From Cyanidioschyzon merolae (Eukaryota), in assembly GCA_000091205.1 (NCBI GenBank), contig AP006495.2: a stretch of DNA of 64,000 nt; one strand, 5' to 3'. Below the pieces are notes generated by a model. That model was not told the DNA's origin. It saw only the letters and a program-made list of their open reading frames with translations, and made no database searches. The translations under genes and the position numbers were made by a program. Positions 15,060 to 60,823 of the stretch are shown in pieces (position 1 is the stretch's first letter; every line of letters starts with the position of its first letter).

Positions 15060-16050
15060 GTAATCATCCCGTCAGGCAAACACGTTTTCTCGTCTATCTC
15101 CAATCGACATCTTCTTCTTCTTCGTTGCTTGCTCTTCTGCGCCTGATTGTCGCCGAGAAGGAGATCTTCCACGTTCTTTCCTGGCAGCCGGCGAAACGGG
15201 GCCTCCAGGATCCGCCACGCTCACTTCCATCACTTTATTTTGTTTTGAATATGAACCCGATGTCGAACGCGTCTGCCTTGAACCGCGAAGCATGACTTGA
15301 ATACACGAGTGTGAAGGCTGAAGCACAGCCGACTTGCCGGACGATACGTTGCAATGACTTTAACGCAAATACAGCTCGGACGTCAGAGGAACCCGCTCAT
15401 CATCATCGTGATCGCGTTTCTCCTCAACGGCGAGATACGCATCGCATCCCATGCCTGCCAGATTTGGAGGTGCGCGTATCGACCCCGCTATATAGAAAAA
15501 AGAACACAAACGAACATCTAACTAGCAACGAGATAACGATTTCTTTCCACCGCTACGATCAAAGTCAAACAGAGGAAACGTTTTCCGTATTGTCGAAAGT
15601 TTACCTTCCAGACGAAAGGTCCCGCAAGCCGGACGAGTCGATCGGGCTCTCGCGCCATATTCCTCCGTAGGGGCGGGTGCTGTAATGAGACCTGAGCAAC
15701 TCGTCGGCAACGCAGTTTATTCTGGGACTCGGAGCGGGTAGCCTGCGTCTGCGCGTCGCCCTGGTCGCAGTGGACTCCTAGCAGCTCGCTTCCCGCTGTC
15801 GCAGGCAGTGGATCTGTCAGCACATCTTCCATGCTTCCAGAATGCTGATGAATCTCGATTCCGTATTCACTGAATCATGCCGCAAGCGGACGCCCTCAGT
15901 AGTATCCCAAAGCGGCGCTGTCTCTGTGCTCCATCCGCACCATCTGTAGCGGTGCTATTGCGGGTGCTTACCGCGGGTACTAGATGCTCGACAGAACGTA
16001 CGAAACTACAAGTACGTACAGCAGAATGCATACGTAATGGGACTTGAAGA
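15060..16050 (-). mobile_element. Fragment E: solo ~1 kb 5' region of the element, lacking the nuclease ORF
   Basis: It is collinear with A 35990-36960 and with the B 5' region (e.g. ggtaaactttcgacaatacggaaaacg, ctgcgaccagggcgacgc, cgccggctgccag). There is no homology to ORF segment 1 beyond ~15060. It ends ~200 bp from the start of the 16261 gene. Confidence 0.5.
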
Positions 16051-25406: not shown

Positions 25407-25654
25407 GCTGTTACCGATGATCGACTCTAAACCGTCTCAAATTATCCCATGATCGACTAGGTATGTACCAGAGCGTCTTGACGAATACCTCTTGTCGTGT
25501 TGAGGCACTGATCAACGAGCTTTCTCGTGCCTGCTGAGCTGCAGGTGCAGCGGCACTGGATTATCCACTGGGCGTGTCGTGCGTACCGTGTGTGTCGAGT
25601 CTGGTGGCGGCAACACGTGCGCTGCGTACGTCTTGCCGCGGAAGTGACGAAATG

Positions 25655-26192
25655 CCAAGGTAGTGAGAAACGTAATCCCTGATAGCAAAATGTATATCTT
25701 CGTATTCAATACATGAACGCCTCTGATTCCCTTTGGAGAGAAGGACTATGCGAAGGCACTGAGAAACCTAATCCCTGATAGCATCATGTATATCTTCGTA
25801 TTCAATACATGAACGCCTCTGATTCCCTTTGGAGAGAAGGACTATGCGAAGGCACTGAGAAACCTAATCCCTGATAGCATCATGTATATCTTCGTATTCA
25901 ATACATGAACGCCTCTGATTCCCTTTGGAGAGAAGGACTATGCAGGCACTGAGAAACGTAATCCCTGATAGCATCATGTATATCTTCGTATTCAATACGT
26001 GAACGCCTCTGATTCCCTTTGGAGAGAAGGACTATGCGAAGGCACTGAGAAACCTAATCCCTGATAGCATCATGTATATCTTCGTATTCAATACATGAAC
26101 GCCTCTGATTCCCTTTGGAGAGAAGGACTATGCAGGCACTGAGAAACGTAATCCCTGATAGCATCATGTATATCTTCGTATTCAATACATGA
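25655..26192. repeat. Minisatellite: ~5.5 tandem copies of a 94-97 bp unit
   Basis: The unit is ggcactgagaaac(c/g)taatccctgatagcatcatgtatatcttcgtattcaatacatgaacgcctctgattccctttggagagaaggactatgc(gaa). Unit starts are at ~25754, 25851, 25945, 26041 and 26135. The units are contiguous with no unique spacers. The array is intergenic between RNR1 and the 26265 gene. Confidence 0.85.
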
Positions 26193-26264
26193 AACAATGC
26201 CGTCTCACACCCGAAATCAATTCCGACCGCCTGGCTGCAGCTTGGCCTCGGACCGGGTCAGGAG

Positions 26265-35521: not shown

Positions 35522-37088
35522 AGCAGTCTCACTGTTCGGTTCGTTACAGACAATCCTTCTGTTAGGGATTAAGAAACGCTCCCCAAAATCACCCACGTTG
35601 AGAAAGAAAAAAGAAAACTTGCCTCCAGAGGCTATGCAACGATAGCTTCTAGAGACGTTTCGAATGGTGGCATGGCCTCCGAACCGTTGTACCCCGTGGC
35701 AAGATCGAGTCTGTACATAATTATCCAAAAGTTGAAGGCGCTCGATACGCCGGACAGCGCTGCGCGGCGCTGCTACCGGGACACGTTGCGGCTATCGCGC
35801 GATCGCGTATCGCGTGACTGTCGATTGAATCCTTTTTGTCCAGATATATTCCTTATTTGGACAGAGCGATATGGACGCAGGTTGTTTTTTGATGGCAAAA
35901 CGCTGATATGGACCATGGATGCCAGTCTGGGGGATAGATATTGCAACAAATGAAAGCGCTCAGCAATGTTCACTCTCGTTCCGAGTTCCACGACGCACAT
36001 TTTCGCACGGCTATACTGGTCGCTTTGCACGTTCCCTGGTGCGCCGCATACTGGCAGTGAGCACCCGCAATAGAGCCTATGCTGCTCGTGCGGATACTGA
36101 ACGGAGACAGAGCGGCTTTGCTATATCAGTGGGGGTGTCGGCTCGATGCGTGGTGCATTCGACACGGAACCAGGGTACATTATCATTCTGGGGCCTGCCA
36201 GCTGCGAATGCAGACCCACTGCCTGTGGCAGCGCGAATTGATTCGCAGGGAGTCCTCTGCGACCAGCACGACGCCCAGAAGGAGCTTATCCGCTCCGAGT
36301 CCCAGAGTAACCCGCGTTTCGGACGAGTTGCGTAGACCTCACTACAGCACTAGGGACTGGGGGAAGCGTGAAGCACGAGCCCGGGAGACTCTTGCGGCTC
36401 GCGGGACCCTCTGCTTCTACGGTAAACTTTCGACCATACGGAAAGCTTTTTGCCCCTTTTGACGTTTATCGTAGAGAGGCAAAGACATCTTTATATCGTT
36501 GCTAGGTAGTAGTGAGTTTCAGTTCTACGTTCGATATAGTGCGGTCGGTTAGCGCTCCTCCGTATTCAGCATGCATGGGACACGACTCGCATGTCGTCGT
36601 TGAAGGGAAACACGATCCTAACTATTCGTTGACTTGCTATTCTACAGTACAAGATCTATTTGCGTGAAAGTCGTAGCAAAGTATAGCTTTCAATTCAATC
36701 GCGTGTCAAGCCTCAACTAAGTGTATTCAAGTGATTTTTTGCGGTTTATAGCAGAAGCGTTCAACGTGCGTTGTTTATCCAAAATTAAAAAATGGGAATA
36801 GTATAGAGAAGGAGGTGGAGGATCCTGCAGGCCGAGTGTCGCCGGCTGCCAGAAAAAAACGGAAAATAATGCCGAGTCCAGAAGAAAAGGAGGAGAATAA
36901 GAAGCAAGGGAGGGAGCCCCCGTAGTCAATGGCTGCACGAAAGACGACACTGCGACGACATGGTAGTCGAAGCCTGTCTTCCCAAACATATCAAGGATCC
37001 CTACAAGCAAAAGATGCGAGAGGCCATCAGAAGCCGTATCCATTCGTACTCCAGGTAGGTTCATAAGGTTTCTGGAGGACTGAATCAT

Positions 37089-38931
37089 ATGTTGAGGGAG
37101 ATATACGATGACGTTACGGACACCAAACCGGTCGAGGTTCCGGAAGAATTTTTCGACAAGACCTTTATTCGTCACCTGATGGTTAGAACAGGAGAAACGT
37201 CGGGGGGAAATGATGGAGTGCATGCACTCCACGAAAACTACGCAGAATACCACTCCAATGGTACTCGATACAGCGTTCACCCGTGTATTTACGAATACGG
37301 GGCGAAGAAGTACCTCACGAACCTGAAGAACCATATGACGATGAACCTCGAACGTTTCATGATACGCACCGTGTTTGCACTTTATCCGGGCCTGTCTTGC
37401 AATAGGATATGGGGCATCATCGAAATCATCTCGAACGATCGTCAACATGAAGATGAGATCGAATTCGTCGACAAGAAGACATCACGCAGGAGAAAGAATG
37501 AGGATTCTGTAATCCGTACGGTTATGCAAGAGCACCGTGCGGTACTGGGCTGGCGAATCCAACAGACAAGATATCAGAGTTGAAAAAAGATAAGGAAAGA
37601 TACTATCGCCTCGTCCCGCGCCATGTTGTGTTTCTGGACCGAGAACTCGAACGCAAGGCAGAGGTGAAGCTGGGTGAGGAAAACAATGAAGAGTGGGAGA
37701 AACGGAATGCAGTCCTAATGGCGAAGCGCTTCAACGTGGTTCCAATGTGCAAGATCAAGTCACATTTTATGACTATCGACTTCGGCGTCCTTTACGGCAT
37801 AATGAAGGAGATCAGTCCGGAGTTCAATGTTAGTAGGGAGGAACTCTCCGGTGAAAACCGGGATACGTACAGTAAGAAGAATATCTTCTATTTCAAACGT
37901 CTCAAAGTGAGCAAACAAAAGGTATTTGCTGGGTTGATCGAAATCGATGGAGTAGTCATGTGTGTACACTATCGGCGGTTGACGAAAGATCGTCCAGTCC
38001 CGCCCTCTGCTGCGCCCTCGACGAAGCATGAAGAAAACGAACAAGCGGATCCTGCGACCGAGAAAGTGCGAGGTACCGACTTTGACGTTGGCACGGACCC
38101 CGGCAACGCAAATATCATAAGCATCGCAGAACCCAAGCGTGCCGTGCGGAAGATGGTATTGACGGTAAATTACGTCGGAAAGGCATGCGTCTTTTGACAT
38201 CCTCGAGAGCAAGATACTATCGAGAATCGGGAATCATGAATGCGAAGAACAAATTCGACAAATAGAATTCAGGAATGAAAGAACACCTGGAAGCTTTGAG
38301 CGAGGTGACAAGCCGAGGAGCGGACTTTGAAGCTTTTCTGAAATTCGTGGAAGTTCGCGTTGCTCATTGGGATGCGCTATGGAAAGAGTACACCAAGCCC
38401 AGTTGGGCTCGTCTGCGTATGAATCTATACGGTGGGAGGCAGCGGGCGATCGCGAACTTTTTCAATCAGTTGAGCGCCTTGAAGGAGAATGAAAGTCAGA
38501 AGCTTGTTGTAGCATACGGAGCAGGGCGCTGGAAGACCCAAAAGGGGTGTATGCCAGCTCCGACGACGAGGGTGAACAAGGAGTGCGCAAGGCGTTTCAT
38601 TACGATACCCGTAGATGAGTTCCGAACATCGTATACACACCATGAACTGGGGTGTACATTTCAAAGAGTGGAGCTGGAAAAGTGTCAATGGAGCCCTGAG
38701 GAAATCGCAAAGTACGGACTGCTGACGGAGGAGCAAAGGGAAAGGAGGGCAAAAGTTCAAGGGCTACTCGCACTGGTGAGTACAACCAGTGACGGCAAGA
38801 AACGTATGGAGTTTGTGAACCGAGATTTTAACGCCGCTCTCCATATACGGAGATGTGCGGTGCTGGAGGAAAACCCCCAGAGTAGACAAGAGGGAATTTT
38901 GATGGAGAACCTCTCAAGTCGAACTATATGA
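37089..38931 (+). pseudogene. TnpB/Fanzor-like RuvC nuclease ORF (copy A), split into three frames (37089-37583, 37580-38197, 38275-38931)
   Basis: RuvC-I-like [19 protein letters not shown] is present. The zinc-finger region IPVDEFRTSYTHHELGC...C follows. The RuvC-III motif KKRMEFVNRDFNAALHIRRC is present. A frameshift relative to copy B lies at AEPKRAV/EDGID. Confidence 0.6.
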
Positions 38932-39090
38932 GAAAAAATTGGAAGCAGTAGTAGGTGGCCGGTCCAAAAAAACTGGGAGGCGTCTGCACGTCAGTTGGAG
39001 ACGTTTTGTCTAGGGCGCGTTCACCGCCACTACTGTACACCGTTGGCGTCGTTCGAGTGCGAAAGGCGTTTGCAGTTGGCTTCGTCACGC
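38932..39090 (+). ncRNA. Candidate guide-RNA (omega-RNA-like) scaffold / right-end block of the TnpB-like element
   Basis: The ~150 nt immediately 3' of the ORF stop is the best-conserved part of the element across A, B and C (gcagtagtaggtggccggtcc ... ggcgtctgcacgtcagttggag ... gtctagggcgcg ... gccactactgtacacc ... ggcgtcgttcgag). The internal complementary arms cagtag..gtggc / gccactactg can form a ~10 bp stem. Confidence 0.35.
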
Positions 39091-39652
39091 ATCCATACAT
39101 ATTTGCATGTACAGTATACGTACGCGAGCAAGGAGACAGAAATGAGCGCTGCTGTGTACTTGTATACATCCGATAACGCTTTAACGCATGCATGTATTTG
39201 CATGTAGAAGTATATGCAGGCAGGCAATGATGTAGATATGCATCCATGCTTTCAAGCATGGGCTTACATGCGATTCTTGTATATACCGCAGATCCCAGGC
39301 GAAGCGATGCCTTTCCGTGAGGTTCTCTAAGACGTCAAGCCGCGCGATCCCCGTGCATCACAGCTGTTCCTACGTGGCATGAGAATACCGTCGAATAGGG
39401 GTCTATTTTCGTTCTTCTTTCGTATCATGTGCGAATGAATAATACCTCGTCTTTCTGTGATGCTTTTGAGAAAAGAACGTGCAGCAATACTGAAACAGAA
39501 GGCACGCGCATGCCGCACGCCAAACCGTCAACTTTTCTCAGTACCCTGGTTTCCCGATATGACTTTATGATTCGATTCACAGAGATGGAGCTCTGTGTCG
39601 AGCGTCAGCGCCAACGTTGGGCAACCGGATCACACTCGAGAATTATCACTGC

Positions 39653-53149: not shown

Positions 53150-54040
53150 CTAGTTCCCAAAGGCGCCCAGCAGTTGCTCAACAGCAGGCTTGACACGTTT
53201 TTCATACCAGGACGGATCCGGACAGAGCTCCTGGATTTTGCGCGCCATTGCTTGCCAGCCGTCTTTAACACGGCTCAAATCCAGCCCAAGTTCATGGTAG
53301 AGCTCCAGTAGTAATGCAACGTTGCGTCGGTGCAAAAAGTCAACTGGCGGTGCATTCTCCTCCTGAGCCAGCACCGCATAACTCACAATGCGAAGCTGAT
53401 CGCGCATGTCGTTGGCGAGCTGTTCCTCGATGGCTTCGGTGCGGCTCAGCGTTGCCAGATTTTTTCCCTCGTAGCATTCTTTCTTCACCCTTGCAGCCGC
53501 AATGCCAGCTTCGATGATCGCCTCCGCATTGGTCGTAATGACTGCCGCCACGTCAGCGCCCTGAAAACTCCTCCTACCACGATATGACTCAATCTCTTCG
53601 ATAGGGACGAACATCAGCGCTGTATCATTTTTCCGGCAGGTGTTCGCGGCTTCTGTATGGAAGCCGTCACCACACCGAAGAAGCGACTTGTGACTGCGCA
53701 AAAACGCCCGCAGGGCCTGCGCACGCCTCGACATGTGATCCGTCTTTGGGACCGAAGTTGGAGCGGGCGCACCATTGTTCTGGGAAGCAGCACCAGCGCC
53801 GTCACGCGGGCCGGCACCCACCGGGAACGGTGGAGTTAATGTCGAGGTGATCTGCAGCGCCCGACAAGCACGCTTTGCGTTCGCCAACGAGCATGGGGAA
53901 ACCCGCCGGAGCGACCTCCCGTGCGAGGAAAGCCAACGGCTACTCCAAACGAAGCCAGTCGACGCCTTCCTAACCAACGCTACACTTGAAGCCTTTCGAT
54001 GTTTCGGTGAATAATGCAAAAAAATGTTTGTAAAAGCCAT
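53150..54040 (-). CDS. Hypothetical conserved protein with Arg/Ser-rich N-terminal presequence
   Basis: The ORF track gives 53150..54067, apparently with a non-ATG start. The first ATG gives MAFTNIFLHY... The N-terminus looks like a mitochondrial presequence. The internal block RCGDGFHTEAANTC...VITTNAEAIIEAG is unassigned. Confidence 0.35.
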   Translation of the reverse strand: MAFTNIFLHYSPKHRKASSVALVRKASTGFVWSSRWLSSHGRSLRRVSPCSLANAKRACRALQITSTLTPPFPVGAGPRDGAGAASQNNGAPAPTSVPKTDHMSRRAQALRAFLRSHKSLLRCGDGFHTEAANTCRKNDTALMFVPIEEIESYRGRRSFQGADVAAVITTNAEAIIEAGIAAARVKKECYEGKNLATLSRTEAIEEQLANDMRDQLRIVSYAVLAQEENAPPVDFLHRRNVALLLELYHELGLDLSRVKDGWQAMARKIQELCPDPSWYEKRVKPAVEQLLGAFGN

Positions 54041-54049
54041 GTTCGAGCG

Positions 54050-54195
54050 CACGACACGCACCAACAAACGCCCCTCTAAAGTCGAACGACGCCAGCGGTA
54101 TGCAGTAGTGGCGTGTGACGCGCCCTAAACAAGACGACTCCAACTGACGTAGAGACGCCCACCAGGCGTTCTCGGCGGTCCATGTACTAATGCTT
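54050..54195 (-). ncRNA. Candidate omega-RNA-like 3' block of copy B
   Basis: It is homologous to 38932-39090 (ggcgtctctacgtcagttggagtcgtcttgtttagggcgcgtcacacgccactactgcataccgctggcgtcgttcgac). Confidence 0.3.
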
Positions 54196-56082
54196 TCAAT
54201 CATGTCTCATATAGTTCAACATTGGGAGGTTGTCCAATAAAGTTCGCTCTTGTCCATTATGAGGTCTTCTTTCCATCACCGCACATTTGTTTATATTAAT
54301 TGCGCCATAAACATCTCGGTTCACAAACTCCATACGTTTCTTGCCATTAGAAGTTGTACTTTCTAATGCGAGCAATCCTCGAACAATCGCCCACCTTTCC
54401 ATTTGCTCTTCCGTCAGCGCTCCGTACGTTTTTATATCCTCAGGGCTCCGCTGGCACTTTTCTCTTTCGGCTCTCTGAAGTGTACATCCCAACTCGTGGA
54501 TTGTATACGATGTTCGGAACTTATGTACAGGTATCCTAGCGAAACGCCTTGCGCAATCCTTATATATTCTTGTCGTGGGAGCTGGTGTAGTCCCTTTTTT
54601 GGGCGCCCAGCGCCCTGCTCTGCACGCTACTACGAGCTTTTGACTTTGATCCTCTTTGAGGGCACTGAACTGATTGAAAAAGTTGACGAATCCACGCTGC
54701 TTCCCACAGCACAGATACATTCGCGATAGAGCCCACATGGGCTTTAGATATTCTTTCCAAAGCGCCTCCCAATGAGCAACGCGAACTTCCATGAATTTCA
54801 GAAAAGCTTGAAAGTCTGCTCATCGGATCGTCAGCTCGCTCGAAGCTCTCAGGTGCTCCTTGATTTATGCATTCCATGTCTCAGTTTTCTTCCTCGCATT
54901 CTTTATACCGGATTCTCGATAATATCTAGTTCTTGAGAACCTCAATAGACGCATGTCGCTCTCACGTAAGCTGCCGTCAATGCCATCTTCCGCACGCTTG
55001 GGAGCAACGATGGTTATGCTATTCGTATTCGCAGGGTCCGCCCCAACGACAAAGTCGTTATCCTGCACCTCCTGCGTCGCTGGATCTGCCTCTTTGATTT
55101 CTTCATGCTTCGCAGAGGGCGAAGCGAAAGGCACGATAGGACGATCCATCTTCAACCGCCAATAGTGCACACACATGGCTACACCATCGGTTTCGACCAT
55201 CCCAGCGAATACCTTTTGTTTGCTCACTTTGAGACGTTTGAAATAGAAGATACTCTTCTTACCGTATGTCTCACGGGCTTCACCGGAGAACTCCTCCATT
55301 GTAGCATCGAACTCGGGACTGATCTCTCTCATGATGCCATGAAGGGTTCTGGAGTCGATACTCACAAAATGTGACTTGATGTTGCACATTGGAACCACGT
55401 TGACGCGCCTCCCCATTAGAATAGCCTTCCGTCTCTCCCACTCTTCATTTGTCTCTACACTCAGCTTCATTTCCGCCTTGCGTTCGAGCTCTCGGTCCAG
55501 AAACACGAAATCGCGCAGAATGAGGCGATAGTATCTTTACTTGTCTTTTTTCAACTCTGATATCTTGTCTATTGGATTCGCCAACCCCAGTACCGCACGG
55601 TGCTCTTGTATAACCGCACGGATCACAGAAGCTTCATTCGTGCTCCTGAGTGACGCCTTCTTGTCGACGAATTCGACCTCATCTTCATACTATCGATCGT
55701 TCATGGTGCCATTGATCATCGCCCATATTCCTTTGCGAGAGACGCCCGTGTGGAGTGCAAACACGGCGCATATCATGAAACGTTCGAGGCTCTCTGTTAA
55801 ATGGTTTTTCAGGTTCGTAACGTACTTCATCGTTCCGTATATGTAAATATTCGAGTCACCCTTGCATCGAGTACCCTCGAAGCAGAATTCCGCGAAGATT
55901 TCGTGAAGAGTGCGAACCAGCTCATTTTCCCTCTGCGCTTTCCCTGTACCAAGCATCAAGTGACGAATATGTGTCTGGTCGAAGAGCTTGTCCGGAAGCT
56001 CGACCGTTTCCATGTGCGTCACGTCGCGATACGTCTGCATCACCAAATGCATCAGTCCTGTCGACGCCTTGACAATACTCAT
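54196..56082 (-). pseudogene. TnpB/Fanzor-like RuvC nuclease ORF (copy B), single frame interrupted by stops plus one frameshift
   Basis: The segments 55690-56082, 54865-55506 and 54196-54792 share a frame. The motifs [37 protein letters not shown] and EFVNRDVYGAININKC are present. A 1-nt deletion near FVF/LDRELERK was seen by manual translation. Confidence 0.6.
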
Positions 56083-58684: not shown

Positions 58685-60667
58685 TCAGCTATCCGCTAAG
58701 TTCGTATTCGCGTCTAGGGGCCGCCAGCCAAGGTCTTGCAAGGCCGTCAAAGAAGCCGATACGCTAGAGCTCCGCCAGCGCGGCGACTTCCAGATCGAGC
58801 CGCCCCGAGTCTCCTCCGTCCAGAGCGGAGCACCGGTATCCCCAACGTGATAGCTGTTCTCGATTCGTACGTTCGTTACACCGATCTGGGCAAACGCTTT
58901 CGTCAGCTGCGCGAAGGGATCCTCGGTGACGCTCCAGTGCGGATCCGCAATGGATACCGAGCGCCCTGACGACACCGAATGTGAGATCGGTGAGTTATCG
59001 GGCAAGCATGGGTTCCCCGTCGCTGGTTTCCTTCGTTCGCCAACAGCACCGAGAGAGACAGAACAAGAGCGCCTAATCGCGCCGCTTGCCATTTGAATTG
59101 CCGGGTCCCAGGAGATGAACGCCTGCTGTGTCAACGGTTCGACCTCTGGGTGTAGCGCTGTACGATTACCTGTAGCGTCACGTTCTGACAAAGAAATACG
59201 CTCGTATTCGTCAAAAGAACGCCATGCGTTGACCATAGCCCCTGATGCTTGAGGCGGTGCCCCTTCGGCTGCATCACCCACAAGCCTTGTTGAGCGTTCT
59301 GAGGCCGCGCGCGTCCCCAGGCCGGGCTCCGCATGCCACGACAAGGGCGAACTGCTTCCCCAGATGCATCCAAGCTTAAACAGATCGTTCTCTCTTGCTG
59401 CACTAATCTTGGGAGAGGCGAACTCGTCAAAGACGAAGTCGTCCTCATTTGGACCCGCCTCGGCACCCGAGATACTCCCTGCGTCCTGCCTCGCATCGAT
59501 ATCAGAGAGCGGCTGCAGCGTCGCGTTGGAGCAGGGCTTCTTCGTCTGCGTACAGGTCGCGGATCGAAACGCATGCAACGGTGGTGGAGGCCCGTACCTA
59601 CTCTGGAGAAAAGCCTCCCGGGATATGGCATCTGTGTTGGAGGCAAACTCATGTCGGTATAAACACGCGGGATCCACGCAGCGTTTCTGGGTCGGTGGCT
59701 GCGGCGGTTTTGCGCCGTTGGATGCCCGCTTTCGAGATATGACCTTTGCGCCGGCGAATGCAACCGCTACCGTATCGCTTGCATCGAGTGGCCTTATTGA
59801 CGGGTTCCGTCCAGATGTCCATTGTGCAGACTCAATCTGGCTCTGTTTCCATTCAACGAATGTTTTCAGGTATTGCTCACAGGCCTGGACAAATGCCTCA
59901 CAATAGCGCACCGTGCCATAGGAGACGTGCACTTCATGGCCTTGCCAGCGCGCCCCGTCGTAAAGCTGTATTGCGCGGGTGGCTGCCGCCTCATCTGCAT
60001 ACTCCACATAGACGCCAGTTCCCTGGACAAAGAGAACTCGTTGGATTCTCCCCGTCTTTCCGAACATGTCCGAGCGCCGAATTGTGTGCTCGGACCAGAG
60101 AGATTGGTGCAATCCACGAATGCAGATCAAGTTCCGCTGCACGATAAAGGTCTGACGCATTGTTCGTATCCGCTTGGCGAGCTCGTACTCCCGCTGCTCC
60201 TGACGTTCCCTCTCTAGCTGTTCTTGGCGAAGCTGTCGCTCCTTTTTGCGCCTGTTTATTTCACGTAGTCGTTCCTTCTCTGCAAGACGTTCATCACTAA
60301 GCTCCTCGCGGAGTTGAAAGCGGCTCTCGTCGTACGGCGTCCGGCACGCGGGGCACCGGGGGACCTGGCCCTCCTCGCACGCTGTGCGAAGGCGACTCAG
60401 GCACCACAGGCACACTTGATACCCGCACGCGCAAGGAAAGAATGCTTTCTCTGCGGCATCCAGTTCCTCAAGGCAGAGCGGACACTCGCTGCTCTCTTCC
60501 GAAGGTTCGCAAGGTGCCTCATCGGCTGACTTTCCAGAAGCGTGACGGTGCGTAGCCTGGCGCCGCGTCCGTCCGTTTCTTGCCCGCCCGCCTGTCGGCT
60601 GCCTAACGCGTTTCAAAGAAAAAGAACTGTCAGAGGTATCCACAAGTTTGGCACCGCTGAACGCCAT
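58685..60667 (-). CDS. CCR4-NOT complex subunit 4 (NOT4/MOT2)-like RING E3 ligase with RRM
   Basis: The N-terminal C4C4 RING CPLCLEEL...FPCACGYQVCLWC...CPACRTPY is followed by a coiled-coil and an RRM-like block (TFIVQRNLICIRGL...GKTGRIQRVLFVQ), which is the NOT4 architecture. Its start codon abuts the 3' end of repeat copy C. Confidence 0.65.
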   Translation of the reverse strand: MAFSGAKLVDTSDSSFSLKRVRQPTGGRARNGRTRRQATHRHASGKSADEAPCEPSEESSECPLCLEELDAAEKAFFPCACGYQVCLWCLSRLRTACEEGQVPRCPACRTPYDESRFQLREELSDERLAEKERLREINRRKKERQLRQEQLERERQEQREYELAKRIRTMRQTFIVQRNLICIRGLHQSLWSEHTIRRSDMFGKTGRIQRVLFVQGTGVYVEYADEAAATRAIQLYDGARWQGHEVHVSYGTVRYCEAFVQACEQYLKTFVEWKQSQIESAQWTSGRNPSIRPLDASDTVAVAFAGAKVISRKRASNGAKPPQPPTQKRCVDPACLYRHEFASNTDAISREAFLQSRYGPPPPLHAFRSATCTQTKKPCSNATLQPLSDIDARQDAGSISGAEAGPNEDDFVFDEFASPKISAARENDLFKLGCIWGSSSPLSWHAEPGLGTRAASERSTRLVGDAAEGAPPQASGAMVNAWRSFDEYERISLSERDATGNRTALHPEVEPLTQQAFISWDPAIQMASGAIRRSCSVSLGAVGERRKPATGNPCLPDNSPISHSVSSGRSVSIADPHWSVTEDPFAQLTKAFAQIGVTNVRIENSYHVGDTGAPLWTEETRGGSIWKSPRWRSSSVSASLTALQDLGWRPLDANTNLADS

Positions 60668-60823
60668 TCAAAAGTCGAACGATGCCGAAGGTGTACAGTA
60701 GTGGCGGCAAACGCGCCCTAGACAAGACGTCCTCAGGCGACGTGCAGACGCATCTGTCTTTTTCGACCGGCCACCTACTACTGGTTCCAACTTTGTCTCA
60801 TACAGTTCCACTTTGAGTGATTG
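60668..60823 (-). ncRNA. Candidate omega-RNA-like 3' block of copy C
   Basis: ccagtagtaggtggccggtcg...gtctgcacgtcgcctgaggacgtcttgtctagggcgcgtttgccgccactactgtacacc...ggcatcgttcgac is nearly identical to copy A. It ends at the NOT4 ATG. Confidence 0.3.

Follow-up and report, generated by a model that had tools for sequence, protein, structure and literature searches.

The 64,000-nucleotide stretch of Cyanidioschyzon merolae DNA analysed here (contig AP006495.2; the window) carries three copies, A, B and C, of an element of ~3 kb, which self-comparison places at 72-75% pairwise identity, along with long host open reading frames (ORFs), three of which are exactly matched by the C. merolae 10D proteins BAM81139, BAM81146 and BAM81151. 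The three repeats are decayed copies of the published Fanzor1 family CMe-1A, to which they were matched through the published description of its features. A conserved block just behind the apparent nuclease stop codon of copy A, which a preliminary description had proposed as the scaffold of an omega RNA (ωRNA), the guide RNA of TnpB and Fanzor nucleases, is the right-hand end of this ~3-kb TnpB-like transposon in old, frameshifted copies. The block ends in a hairpin that has been preserved by evolution, and it is a plausible relic of a guide-RNA scaffold.

According to Bao & Jurka (2013; PMC3627910), CMe-1A is a Fanzor1 family of C. merolae with ~150 copies of ~3 kb, which are ~80% identical to their consensus, lack terminal inverted repeats (TIRs) and target-site duplications (TSDs), and are equal in their first 635 bp (5') to another repeat, TE-N2_CMe. 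Nozaki et al. (2007; PMC1955436) described a novel interspersed repetitive element of 3.2 kb in C. merolae, which is present in 253 copies, makes up 5% of the genome, carries a truncated ORF resembling wsv486 of white spot syndrome virus (WSSV), and was reported to be transcribed. By its matching features, this 253-copy repeat is CMe-1A. The window copies share with CMe-1A the organism, the length of ~3 kb, a likeness among copies of 72-80%, the absence of TIRs and TSDs, a 5' part of ~635 bp in common with the separate repeat TE-N2_CMe, and a mostly truncated TnpB/Fanzor1-like (wsv486-like) ORF; no difference was seen at the level of the element, and the copies belong to CMe-1A. Fanzors in rhodophytes have been noted in the literature. 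The element and its protein family are thus already published, and the coding of ωRNAs by Fanzor right ends is already established, while no description of a CMe-1A ωRNA, of the true stop position, or of the 16-nt box and terminal hairpin reported below was found in the searchable literature.

The nuclease and the decay of its copies

The majority consensus of copies A, B and C restores a single ORF of ~740 aa with no introns, in which, as in its homologues, the split RuvC motifs D...E...D (general forms GxDxG, DEF/YxTS and NRDxNAAxNI) are recognizable (VGTDPGNTN, VDEFRTS, NRDFNAAINI and FVNRDFNAAINIR). The consensus protein has 66 homologues, nearly all from hot-spring metagenomes, and a single distant one (P0066) carries PF07282, the TnpB/Cas12f1-like TNB domain. 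Pfam and PDB returned nothing useful when searched for individual ORF fragments or just for the consensus, and only a 17-member family profile reached Fanzor1, matching the Parasitella parasitica protein (PDB 9cf0-9cf3) with an E value of 1.1e-12 over the RuvC-I and RuvC-II/III stretches. This match and the agreement with CMe-1A (PMC3627910) bear out the earlier recognition of a TnpB/Fanzor-type nuclease ORF. In the region of the C4 zinc finger (OrfB_Zn_ribbon/TNB), which lies between RuvC-II and RuvC-III, the CMe-1A consensus, on which Pfam has no match, keeps only HH..C...(10)..C (THHELGCTLQRVEMEKC), the later Cys of its relatives (LLWC) being replaced (LLAL).

For comparisons across the family, 80 related loci from hot-spring metagenomes were fetched of 384 detected; conservation was counted on 71 copies, and the alignment A3 holds 68. 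In the ORF body, variability at the three codon positions was 0.078/0.046/0.159 and 0.070/0.056/0.184, a third-position excess which indicates that the family diversified under protein-level selection. An open frame of at least 600 aa through RuvC-III is kept in only three of the 80 loci. In the window itself, the ORF of each copy is split by frameshifts and stops, so that A, B and C are pseudogenes of the family with no intact expressible ORF, and the block they carry is at best a relic.

More distant relatives of the nuclease, at 32-44% identity (L081-L084, L088 and L090, the loci of P0053, P0057 and P0063), are encoded immediately 3' of DDE_3 (PF13358) transposase genes and have a Tc1/mariner-like backbone, unlike the hairpin-ended CMe-1A, which has no transposase. 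The 3' regions of these relatives are conserved, contain an internal CTATATA motif, end in ...GAGTATA and then give way to unrelated flanks; they resisted alignment with CMe-1A.

Extent, coding tail and conservation of the right-end block

A homologous, conserved 3' block is indeed present in the three copies (A, 38932-~39079, plus strand; B, ~54222-54059, minus strand; C, ~60803-60652, minus strand) and in all 80 related loci, and its homology always ends at the same point, ...GGTG, after which column variability rises to ~0.65, the level of non-homologous sequence. The ends first given for it lie too far out: 39080-39090, 54050-54058 and, towards the 5' part of the element, 60804-60823 belong to flank or ordinary ORF.

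The block had also been taken as non-coding from the ORF stop onwards, which does not hold. The family ORF continues for 27 further codons (...VELYEKKLEAVVGGRSKKTGRRLHVSWRRFV) to a TAG at 39011-39013, and this C-terminus, ...GGRSKKTGRRLHVSWRRFV, is found in ~20 intact-frame copies as well as in the 71-copy consensus. The ORF thereby covers the first 82 nt of the block with a basic C-terminal tail that ends ...GQPLKVELYEKKLEAVVGGRSKKTGRRLHVSWRRFV*, the TAG lying within gtctagggcgcg, one of the boxes noted in the preliminary description. In copy A, the TGA at 38929-38931 appears because a 1-nt deletion in an A-run at ~38915-38918 shifts the frame; copy A is the only row gapped at this column of the alignment A3, and its translation from 38918 restores the family C-terminus. 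The stop codon seen in copy A is an artefact of this frameshift, ancestral coding sequence takes up over half of the flagged block, and the truly non-coding right end amounts to ~66 nt (39014-39079).

Some copies (L024, L059, L002, L010 and L058) carry CAG or CAA in place of the family TAG, and their ORF reads through the non-coding right end, for example as ...RRLGVQGAPVATTVHRRRRSTLERR; P0007 and P0011 are such extended proteins as predicted by gene callers.

The block is not the best-conserved stretch of the element, nor is it conserved in excess of the coding region. Its three-way invariance is 0.638 (38932-39079) versus 0.681 for the adjacent ORF (38140-38931), with pairwise identities of 0.74/0.79/0.71 and 0.77/0.80/0.77, respectively; it ranks 588th among 3224 sliding windows, and identity between A and B reaches 0.92 over 37506-37604. 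With four-fold degenerate codon sites as a near-neutral yardstick, the mean variability of the non-coding right end is 0.245 versus 0.193 at those sites. Four-fold sites within the 27-codon tail show 0.165, not significantly different from 0.193, and the codon positions of the tail (0.134/0.115/0.157) have a weak periodicity (permutation p = 0.12).

The 16-nt box CGCCACTACTGTACAC, which spans the 3' member of the complementary arms of the preliminary description and the start of the terminal hairpin, has a mean variability of 0.065 versus 0.193 at four-fold sites (p = 0.001) and is under purifying selection; in the window, exact or near-exact matches to it occur only at copies A, B and C. A neutral rate, which had been named as speaking against constraint, therefore describes the block as a whole but not this box. 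Positions of the non-coding part that are predicted to be paired vary less than those left unpaired (0.179 versus 0.278, p = 0.03), and the trend is opposite in ORF control windows. An inverse-complement copy of the box inside the ORF of copy A (37962-37984, codons CVHYRRL), which matches over 23 nt at 78% or over 16 nt (37962-37977) with 3 mismatches, is at chance level and was set aside. A second such match, at 55157-55172 in copy B, lies at the position homologous to that of copy A.

Hairpins and ends of the element

The terminal hairpin has the family form CACCGTTGGCGYCGTTCGA-CTT-TCGAACGGCGTTGATGGTG, with 19 bp, ~21% of them G·U pairs, and the element ends with the 3' base of this hairpin. 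In the best copies, it folds at -24 to -31 kcal/mol (z -4 to -6), and a second variant, AACGTTTTTC-TTTT-GAAAGACGTT, keeps the hairpin in a different register. Its z is -2.23 for the sense strand versus -0.88 for the antisense strand. When arms were swapped between copies, those of the same copy paired better by 3.0 kcal/mol in a fold test and by 2.0 kcal/mol in a duplex test, while controls (ten windows, six pairs) stayed within about ±0.7 kcal/mol. In a covariance-model alignment of the box and hairpin, two-sided changes were found in 10 of the 19 pairs versus ~4 in shuffles (0/500), also after the removal of antisense matches (0/1000); given that this alignment had been fitted to the structure and that the copies share ancestry, these shuffle counts are not exact probabilities. 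The robust measures are the numbers of pairs and pair types, and they are in line with the arm-swap test, which needs no alignment. The co-varying pairs include C-G/U-A exchanges through a U-G intermediate and G-C/U-A exchanges. The terminal hairpin is clearly preserved by evolution, and its arms co-vary. The covariance model matches copy A at 39025-39077, copy B at 54059-54113 (55.2 bits) and copy C at 60652-60706 (51.1 bits). This signal emerged only with the full 19-bp extent and a structure-aware alignment; a shorter register of the hairpin, scored by column-wise pair counting, was indistinguishable from shuffles.

Single-sequence folding repeatedly predicts three helices in the block, namely a long-range stem, an inner hairpin at 38977-39007 and the terminal hairpin. 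The long-range stem joins the arms of the preliminary description (cagtagt.a.ggtgg, 38946-38958, and ccgcc.actactg, 39024-39035), which are present in copy A together with the boxes acgtcagttggag (38989-39001) and gtctagggcgcg (39007-39018); the consensus, like many copies, pairs these arms in its minimum-free-energy structure, and their mean pair probability is ~0.44. The consensus of the block folds at z -3.6, copies A, B and C at -1.7, -1.1 and -1.05, and the family at a mean of -1.7 to -2.0 (sense) and -0.95 (antisense). Four ORF control windows gave -1.06, -0.34, -0.01 and -1.38, so that the family lies only modestly beyond them and the thermodynamic support is modest. Over a region of 139 nt, the sense strand is more stable than the antisense strand (-53.5 versus -40.7 kcal/mol), as it is in 52 of 54 copies. 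A scan of 38700-39300 against Rfam 15, with E values up to 10, gave only chance-level matches.

At the other end of the element, the sequence common to many loci extends upstream no further than CGCGCTCGGTGAGCGCAC, and the modules before it differ. The left-end palindrome keeps its stem in L029, L057, L064 and others, while its loop varies (GGT/AGT/AGC/ACT), and A-[T/G]-[C/T] usually precedes it, in only ~5-6 independent contexts that are mostly other repeats; the palindrome may be a second end hairpin with a flank resembling a target-adjacent motif (TAM). TIRs were looked for between the element ends and none were found. A Helitron2-type asymmetric TIR, pairing the left-end palindrome with GGCGCG..CACCG, was dropped, as the weak match needs a loop present in few copies only. 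The element thus fits a pattern of hairpins near both ends without TIRs, which is an IS200/IS605-like or Helitron-like trait. No HUH/Y1 or RepHel gene was recovered, the Fanzor ORF being the only one to reconstruct from the three-copy consensus; the 3' terminus is GGTG, not the CTRR of Helitrons (5'-TC...CTRR-3'), and the 5' junction, A|TC, is suggestive of a Helitron start but again comes from few independent contexts.

In copy A, the left end is preceded by a TE-N2_CMe-like module, whose homology to other loci starts at 35884-35892, ends at ~36511 and is found there direct, inverted or at a different site of the locus. In other loci (L007, L063, L057 and others), such a module abuts the Fanzor left end, direct or inverted, and in some it is replaced by other repeated modules, an arrangement which hints at nested insertion or target preference. 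The minus-strand fragment at 15172-15974 consists of a TE-N2-like module and the 5' untranslated part of the Fanzor unit, and has neither ORF nor right end. The coordinates of these features are collected in Table 1.

Table 1. Positions of the CMe-1A copies and of their parts in the window
Feature	Position	Strand	Remark
Copy A	36054/36106-~39079	+	self-comparison
Copy B	57042-~54059	-	self-comparison
Copy C	~62794-~60652	-	self-comparison
5' fragment of element	15172-15974	-	~70% identical to A 36054-36861
TE-N2_CMe-like module 5' of copy A	35884-36539	+	separately repeated unit, ~630-650 bp
Left end of Fanzor unit, copy A	36540-36555	+	decayed family palindrome GCGCTC-GGT-GAGCGC
Decayed Fanzor1 ORF, copy A	36930-38931	+	pieces 37089-37583, 37580-38197, 38275-38931
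1-nt deletion site, copy A	38915-38918	+	A-run, tc-aag vs family TCAAAG
Ancestral ORF C-terminal tail	38932-39013	+	last 27 codons + TAG 39011-39013, out of frame in copy A
5' arm CAGTAGT-A-GGTGG	38946-38958	+	inside coding tail; pairs with 39024-39035
Inner hairpin GAGGCGTCT...AGACGTTTT (predicted)	38977-39007	+	contains box acgtcagttggag; consensus and many copies
Conserved non-coding box CGCCACTACTGTACAC	39025-39040	+	3' arm and start of terminal hairpin
Terminal hairpin, copy A (decayed)	39038-39079	+	42 nt, base at element boundary
Flank beyond element, copy A	39080-39090	+	would be guide start if ωRNA made
Copy B right end, non-coding + stop	54059-54127	-	TAG 54127-54125, box 54113-54098, hairpin 54100-54059
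Copy C right end, non-coding + stop	60652-60720	-	TAG 60720-60718, box 60706-60691, hairpin 60693-60652

The annotated start codon (ATG at 60665-60667, minus strand) of a CNOT4-like gene (BAM81151.1, 660 aa) lies within the 3' arm of the terminal hairpin of copy C (GAATGGCGTT), and members of the same cluster in metagenomes have the same length of 660 aa; either the true start of this gene is further downstream, or the transposon end supplies its 5' end. A mechanical ORF at 53150-54067 adjoins the right end of copy B on the same strand. The window also holds a tandem array (25562-26229) with a period of ~96 nt, made up of six overlapping 190-nt copies with alternating identities of 97-99% and ~61%, which is not related to the right-end block.

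A proposed guide-RNA scaffold and its alternatives

According to previous studies, Fanzor1 (Fz1) ωRNAs come from the sequence that separates the stop codon from the right end or overlaps them, and their last stem adjoins a guide taken from flanking DNA (PMC10432273, PMC10530073, PMC11423790); the GtFz1 ωRNA overlaps the last 17 codons of its ORF (PMC10432273), the SpuFz1 RNA is 88-90 nt long, and Fanzor1 scaffolds go down to 75 nt. The position of the CMe-1A block fits such genes, as the preliminary description had proposed, since it comprises, on the sense strand, the last 27 codons and 66 nt up to the common boundary. A sense-specific hairpin under selection at the element boundary, a constrained box and possible helices upstream match the anatomy of such right ends, and the ancestral, active CMe-1A therefore probably made an ωRNA here. 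Copies A, B and C, whose ORFs are dead and whose fold is eroded (z -1.0 to -1.7), keep the block only as a relic without function.

In active members, a read-through transcript of the ORF 3' end and the right end would have been processed into the ωRNA. Its scaffold would run roughly from 38946 or 38977 to 39079 in the coordinates of copy A, the terminal hairpin would be the guide-adjacent stem, and the guide would consist of 15-20 nt of flanking DNA beyond ...GGTG (from 39080). Sites that match the flank and lie next to a TAM would be cleaved by the Fanzor1-ωRNA complex, and such cutting would favour retention of the element or its spread by homologous repair. The terminal hairpin may double as a DNA end signal for transposition.

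Compared with the ωRNAs of SpuFz1, GtFz1 and PpFz1 (PMC10432273, PMC11423790), which are stem-loop scaffolds of ~75-200 nt with a stem abutting the guide and a guide taken from flanking DNA, the CMe-1A candidate has the same location relative to the stop codon and the right end. The characterized elements are bounded by 30-nt inverted repeats or Tc1/mariner-type ends, and their RNAs have been mapped experimentally, whereas CMe-1A has no inverted repeats; its candidate guide-adjacent stem is unusually long (19 bp), and the overlap with the ORF would be ~11-22 codons. The ωRNAs of bacterial IS200/IS605 TnpB elements, also called right-end element RNAs (reRNAs; e.g., ISDra2, PMC10711439), are alike in that the scaffold takes in the right end together with the last part of the nuclease gene, and that the elements have hairpins near both ends and neither TIRs nor TSDs; their guide starts right after the right end (PMC10711439). 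However, IS200/IS605 elements are mobilized by a Y1 TnpA, none of which was found in the CMe-1A unit, while the nearest protein relatives of CMe-1A adjoin DDE_3 transposase genes. Similarly, the Helitron2-borne Fanzor1 families CRe-1, CRe-2 and CRe-3 (PMC3627910) are non-autonomous and have 5'- and 3'-terminal hairpins, with compensatory changes reported in the terminal structures, but the asymmetric TIRs that define Helitron2 were not convincingly found in CMe-1A, and a RepHel partner was not identified.

Several results weigh against a guide-RNA scaffold. Taken over its full length, the block shows no more conservation than neutral-like sites, and the covariation that marks the terminal hairpin, itself read in part from a fitted alignment of related copies, does not extend to the arms of the preliminary description, to the inner hairpin or to the whole block. 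RNAalifold found no consensus pairs over the whole block in five sub-ranges of the 68-copy alignment; column-wise counts for those arms and the inner hairpin gave 81.8% of cells paired versus 81.4% in shuffles; swapping the arms changed the duplex by +0.35 kcal/mol, so that chimeric duplexes were not weaker, and one arbitrary pair of ORF segments formed a duplex as strong. In the inner hairpin, changes are mostly one-sided (G-U/G-C), and the arm swap gave no signal. Moreover, two of the four ORF control windows (z -1.06 and -1.38) fold almost as well as the block, copies with an intact ORF fold no better than broken ones (p = 0.68), and the 3' regions of the distant relatives have fold z values of +0.9 to -1.3, which are not significant.

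The terminal hairpin and the left-end palindrome might instead be DNA-level recognition or termination signals for the mobility machinery, with no guide RNA involved. Covariation proves that a hairpin forms, not that it is RNA, and the base of this hairpin coincides with the boundary of an element that has hairpins at both ends and neither TIRs nor TSDs (PMC3627910). Parallels are found in the subterminal hairpins of IS200/IS605 and in the 3' hairpins of Helitrons and Helitron2, some of them with Fanzor1, and associations of Fanzor1 with Helitron2 having 5' and 3' hairpins have been published. Against this, G·U(T) predominates in five of the 19 pairs, and the difference in z between the two strands is an asymmetry unusual for a duplex-DNA or cruciform signal, though a sense-specific hairpin could equally be a signal in single-stranded DNA of the top strand, with which the asymmetry is compatible. 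The reconstructed unit also lacks the HUH/Y1 or RepHel gene and the CTRR terminus considered above. We regard purely DNA-level signals as rather unlikely; they do not exclude an ωRNA, because both roles coexist in TnpB systems.

The hairpin was also considered as an element of the 3' untranslated region (3'-UTR) of the Fanzor mRNA that would serve to terminate the transcript, to form its 3' end or to stabilize it, without any guide function. A mobile gene must carry its own 3' signal, so that such an element would sit at the end of the transposon, and the hairpin is sense-specific, rich in G·U pairs and located 27-68 nt past the true stop codon of copies that were reported as transcribed (PMC1955436). 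However, it runs to the last base of the element, leaving no room for a cleavage site, and the protein family is known to use RNA from exactly this position; a 3'-UTR role is improbable in our estimate. Most doubtful of all is a block without function, shaped by common descent together with a chance palindrome or quasi-palindrome correction during replication. The neutral-like overall conservation, the lack of covariation in most predicted helices, and the loss of the long frame in all but three loci, by which most copies are dead, speak for it. It is disfavoured by the box being three times less variable than four-fold sites, by hairpin arms that co-vary far beyond controls, and by the third-position excess in the ORF (0.05-0.08 versus 0.16-0.18), which reflects long selection on the family.

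If the right end of CMe-1A does encode an ωRNA, C. merolae, with its ~250 genomic copies, would provide a Fanzor1 system that occurs naturally in a host adapted to heat and acid, and the hundreds of variants in hot-spring metagenomes would be a source in which to look for an active pair of nuclease and guide. Such an ωRNA would also help to explain how a "non-autonomous" family without a transposase reached ~5% of one of the smallest genomes known from free-living eukaryotes. The alga C. merolae is genetically tractable, and its homologous recombination is efficient. For annotation, the three copies in the window are dead, the stop of copy A is artefactual, and the start codon of the CNOT4-like gene lies within the hairpin of copy C. 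More speculatively, and with little confidence on our part, CMe-1A might be a Fanzor1 lineage that left the DDE_3 (Tc1/mariner-type) backbone seen in its closest relatives, became TIR-less with hairpin ends and uses its G·U-rich 19-bp hairpin both as ωRNA stem and as end signal, with a scaffold overlapping a lineage-specific, basic extension of 27 codons. If so, it would be a eukaryotic element organized like IS200/IS605, which grew to ~5% of a tiny genome while having no transposase of its own that could be identified.

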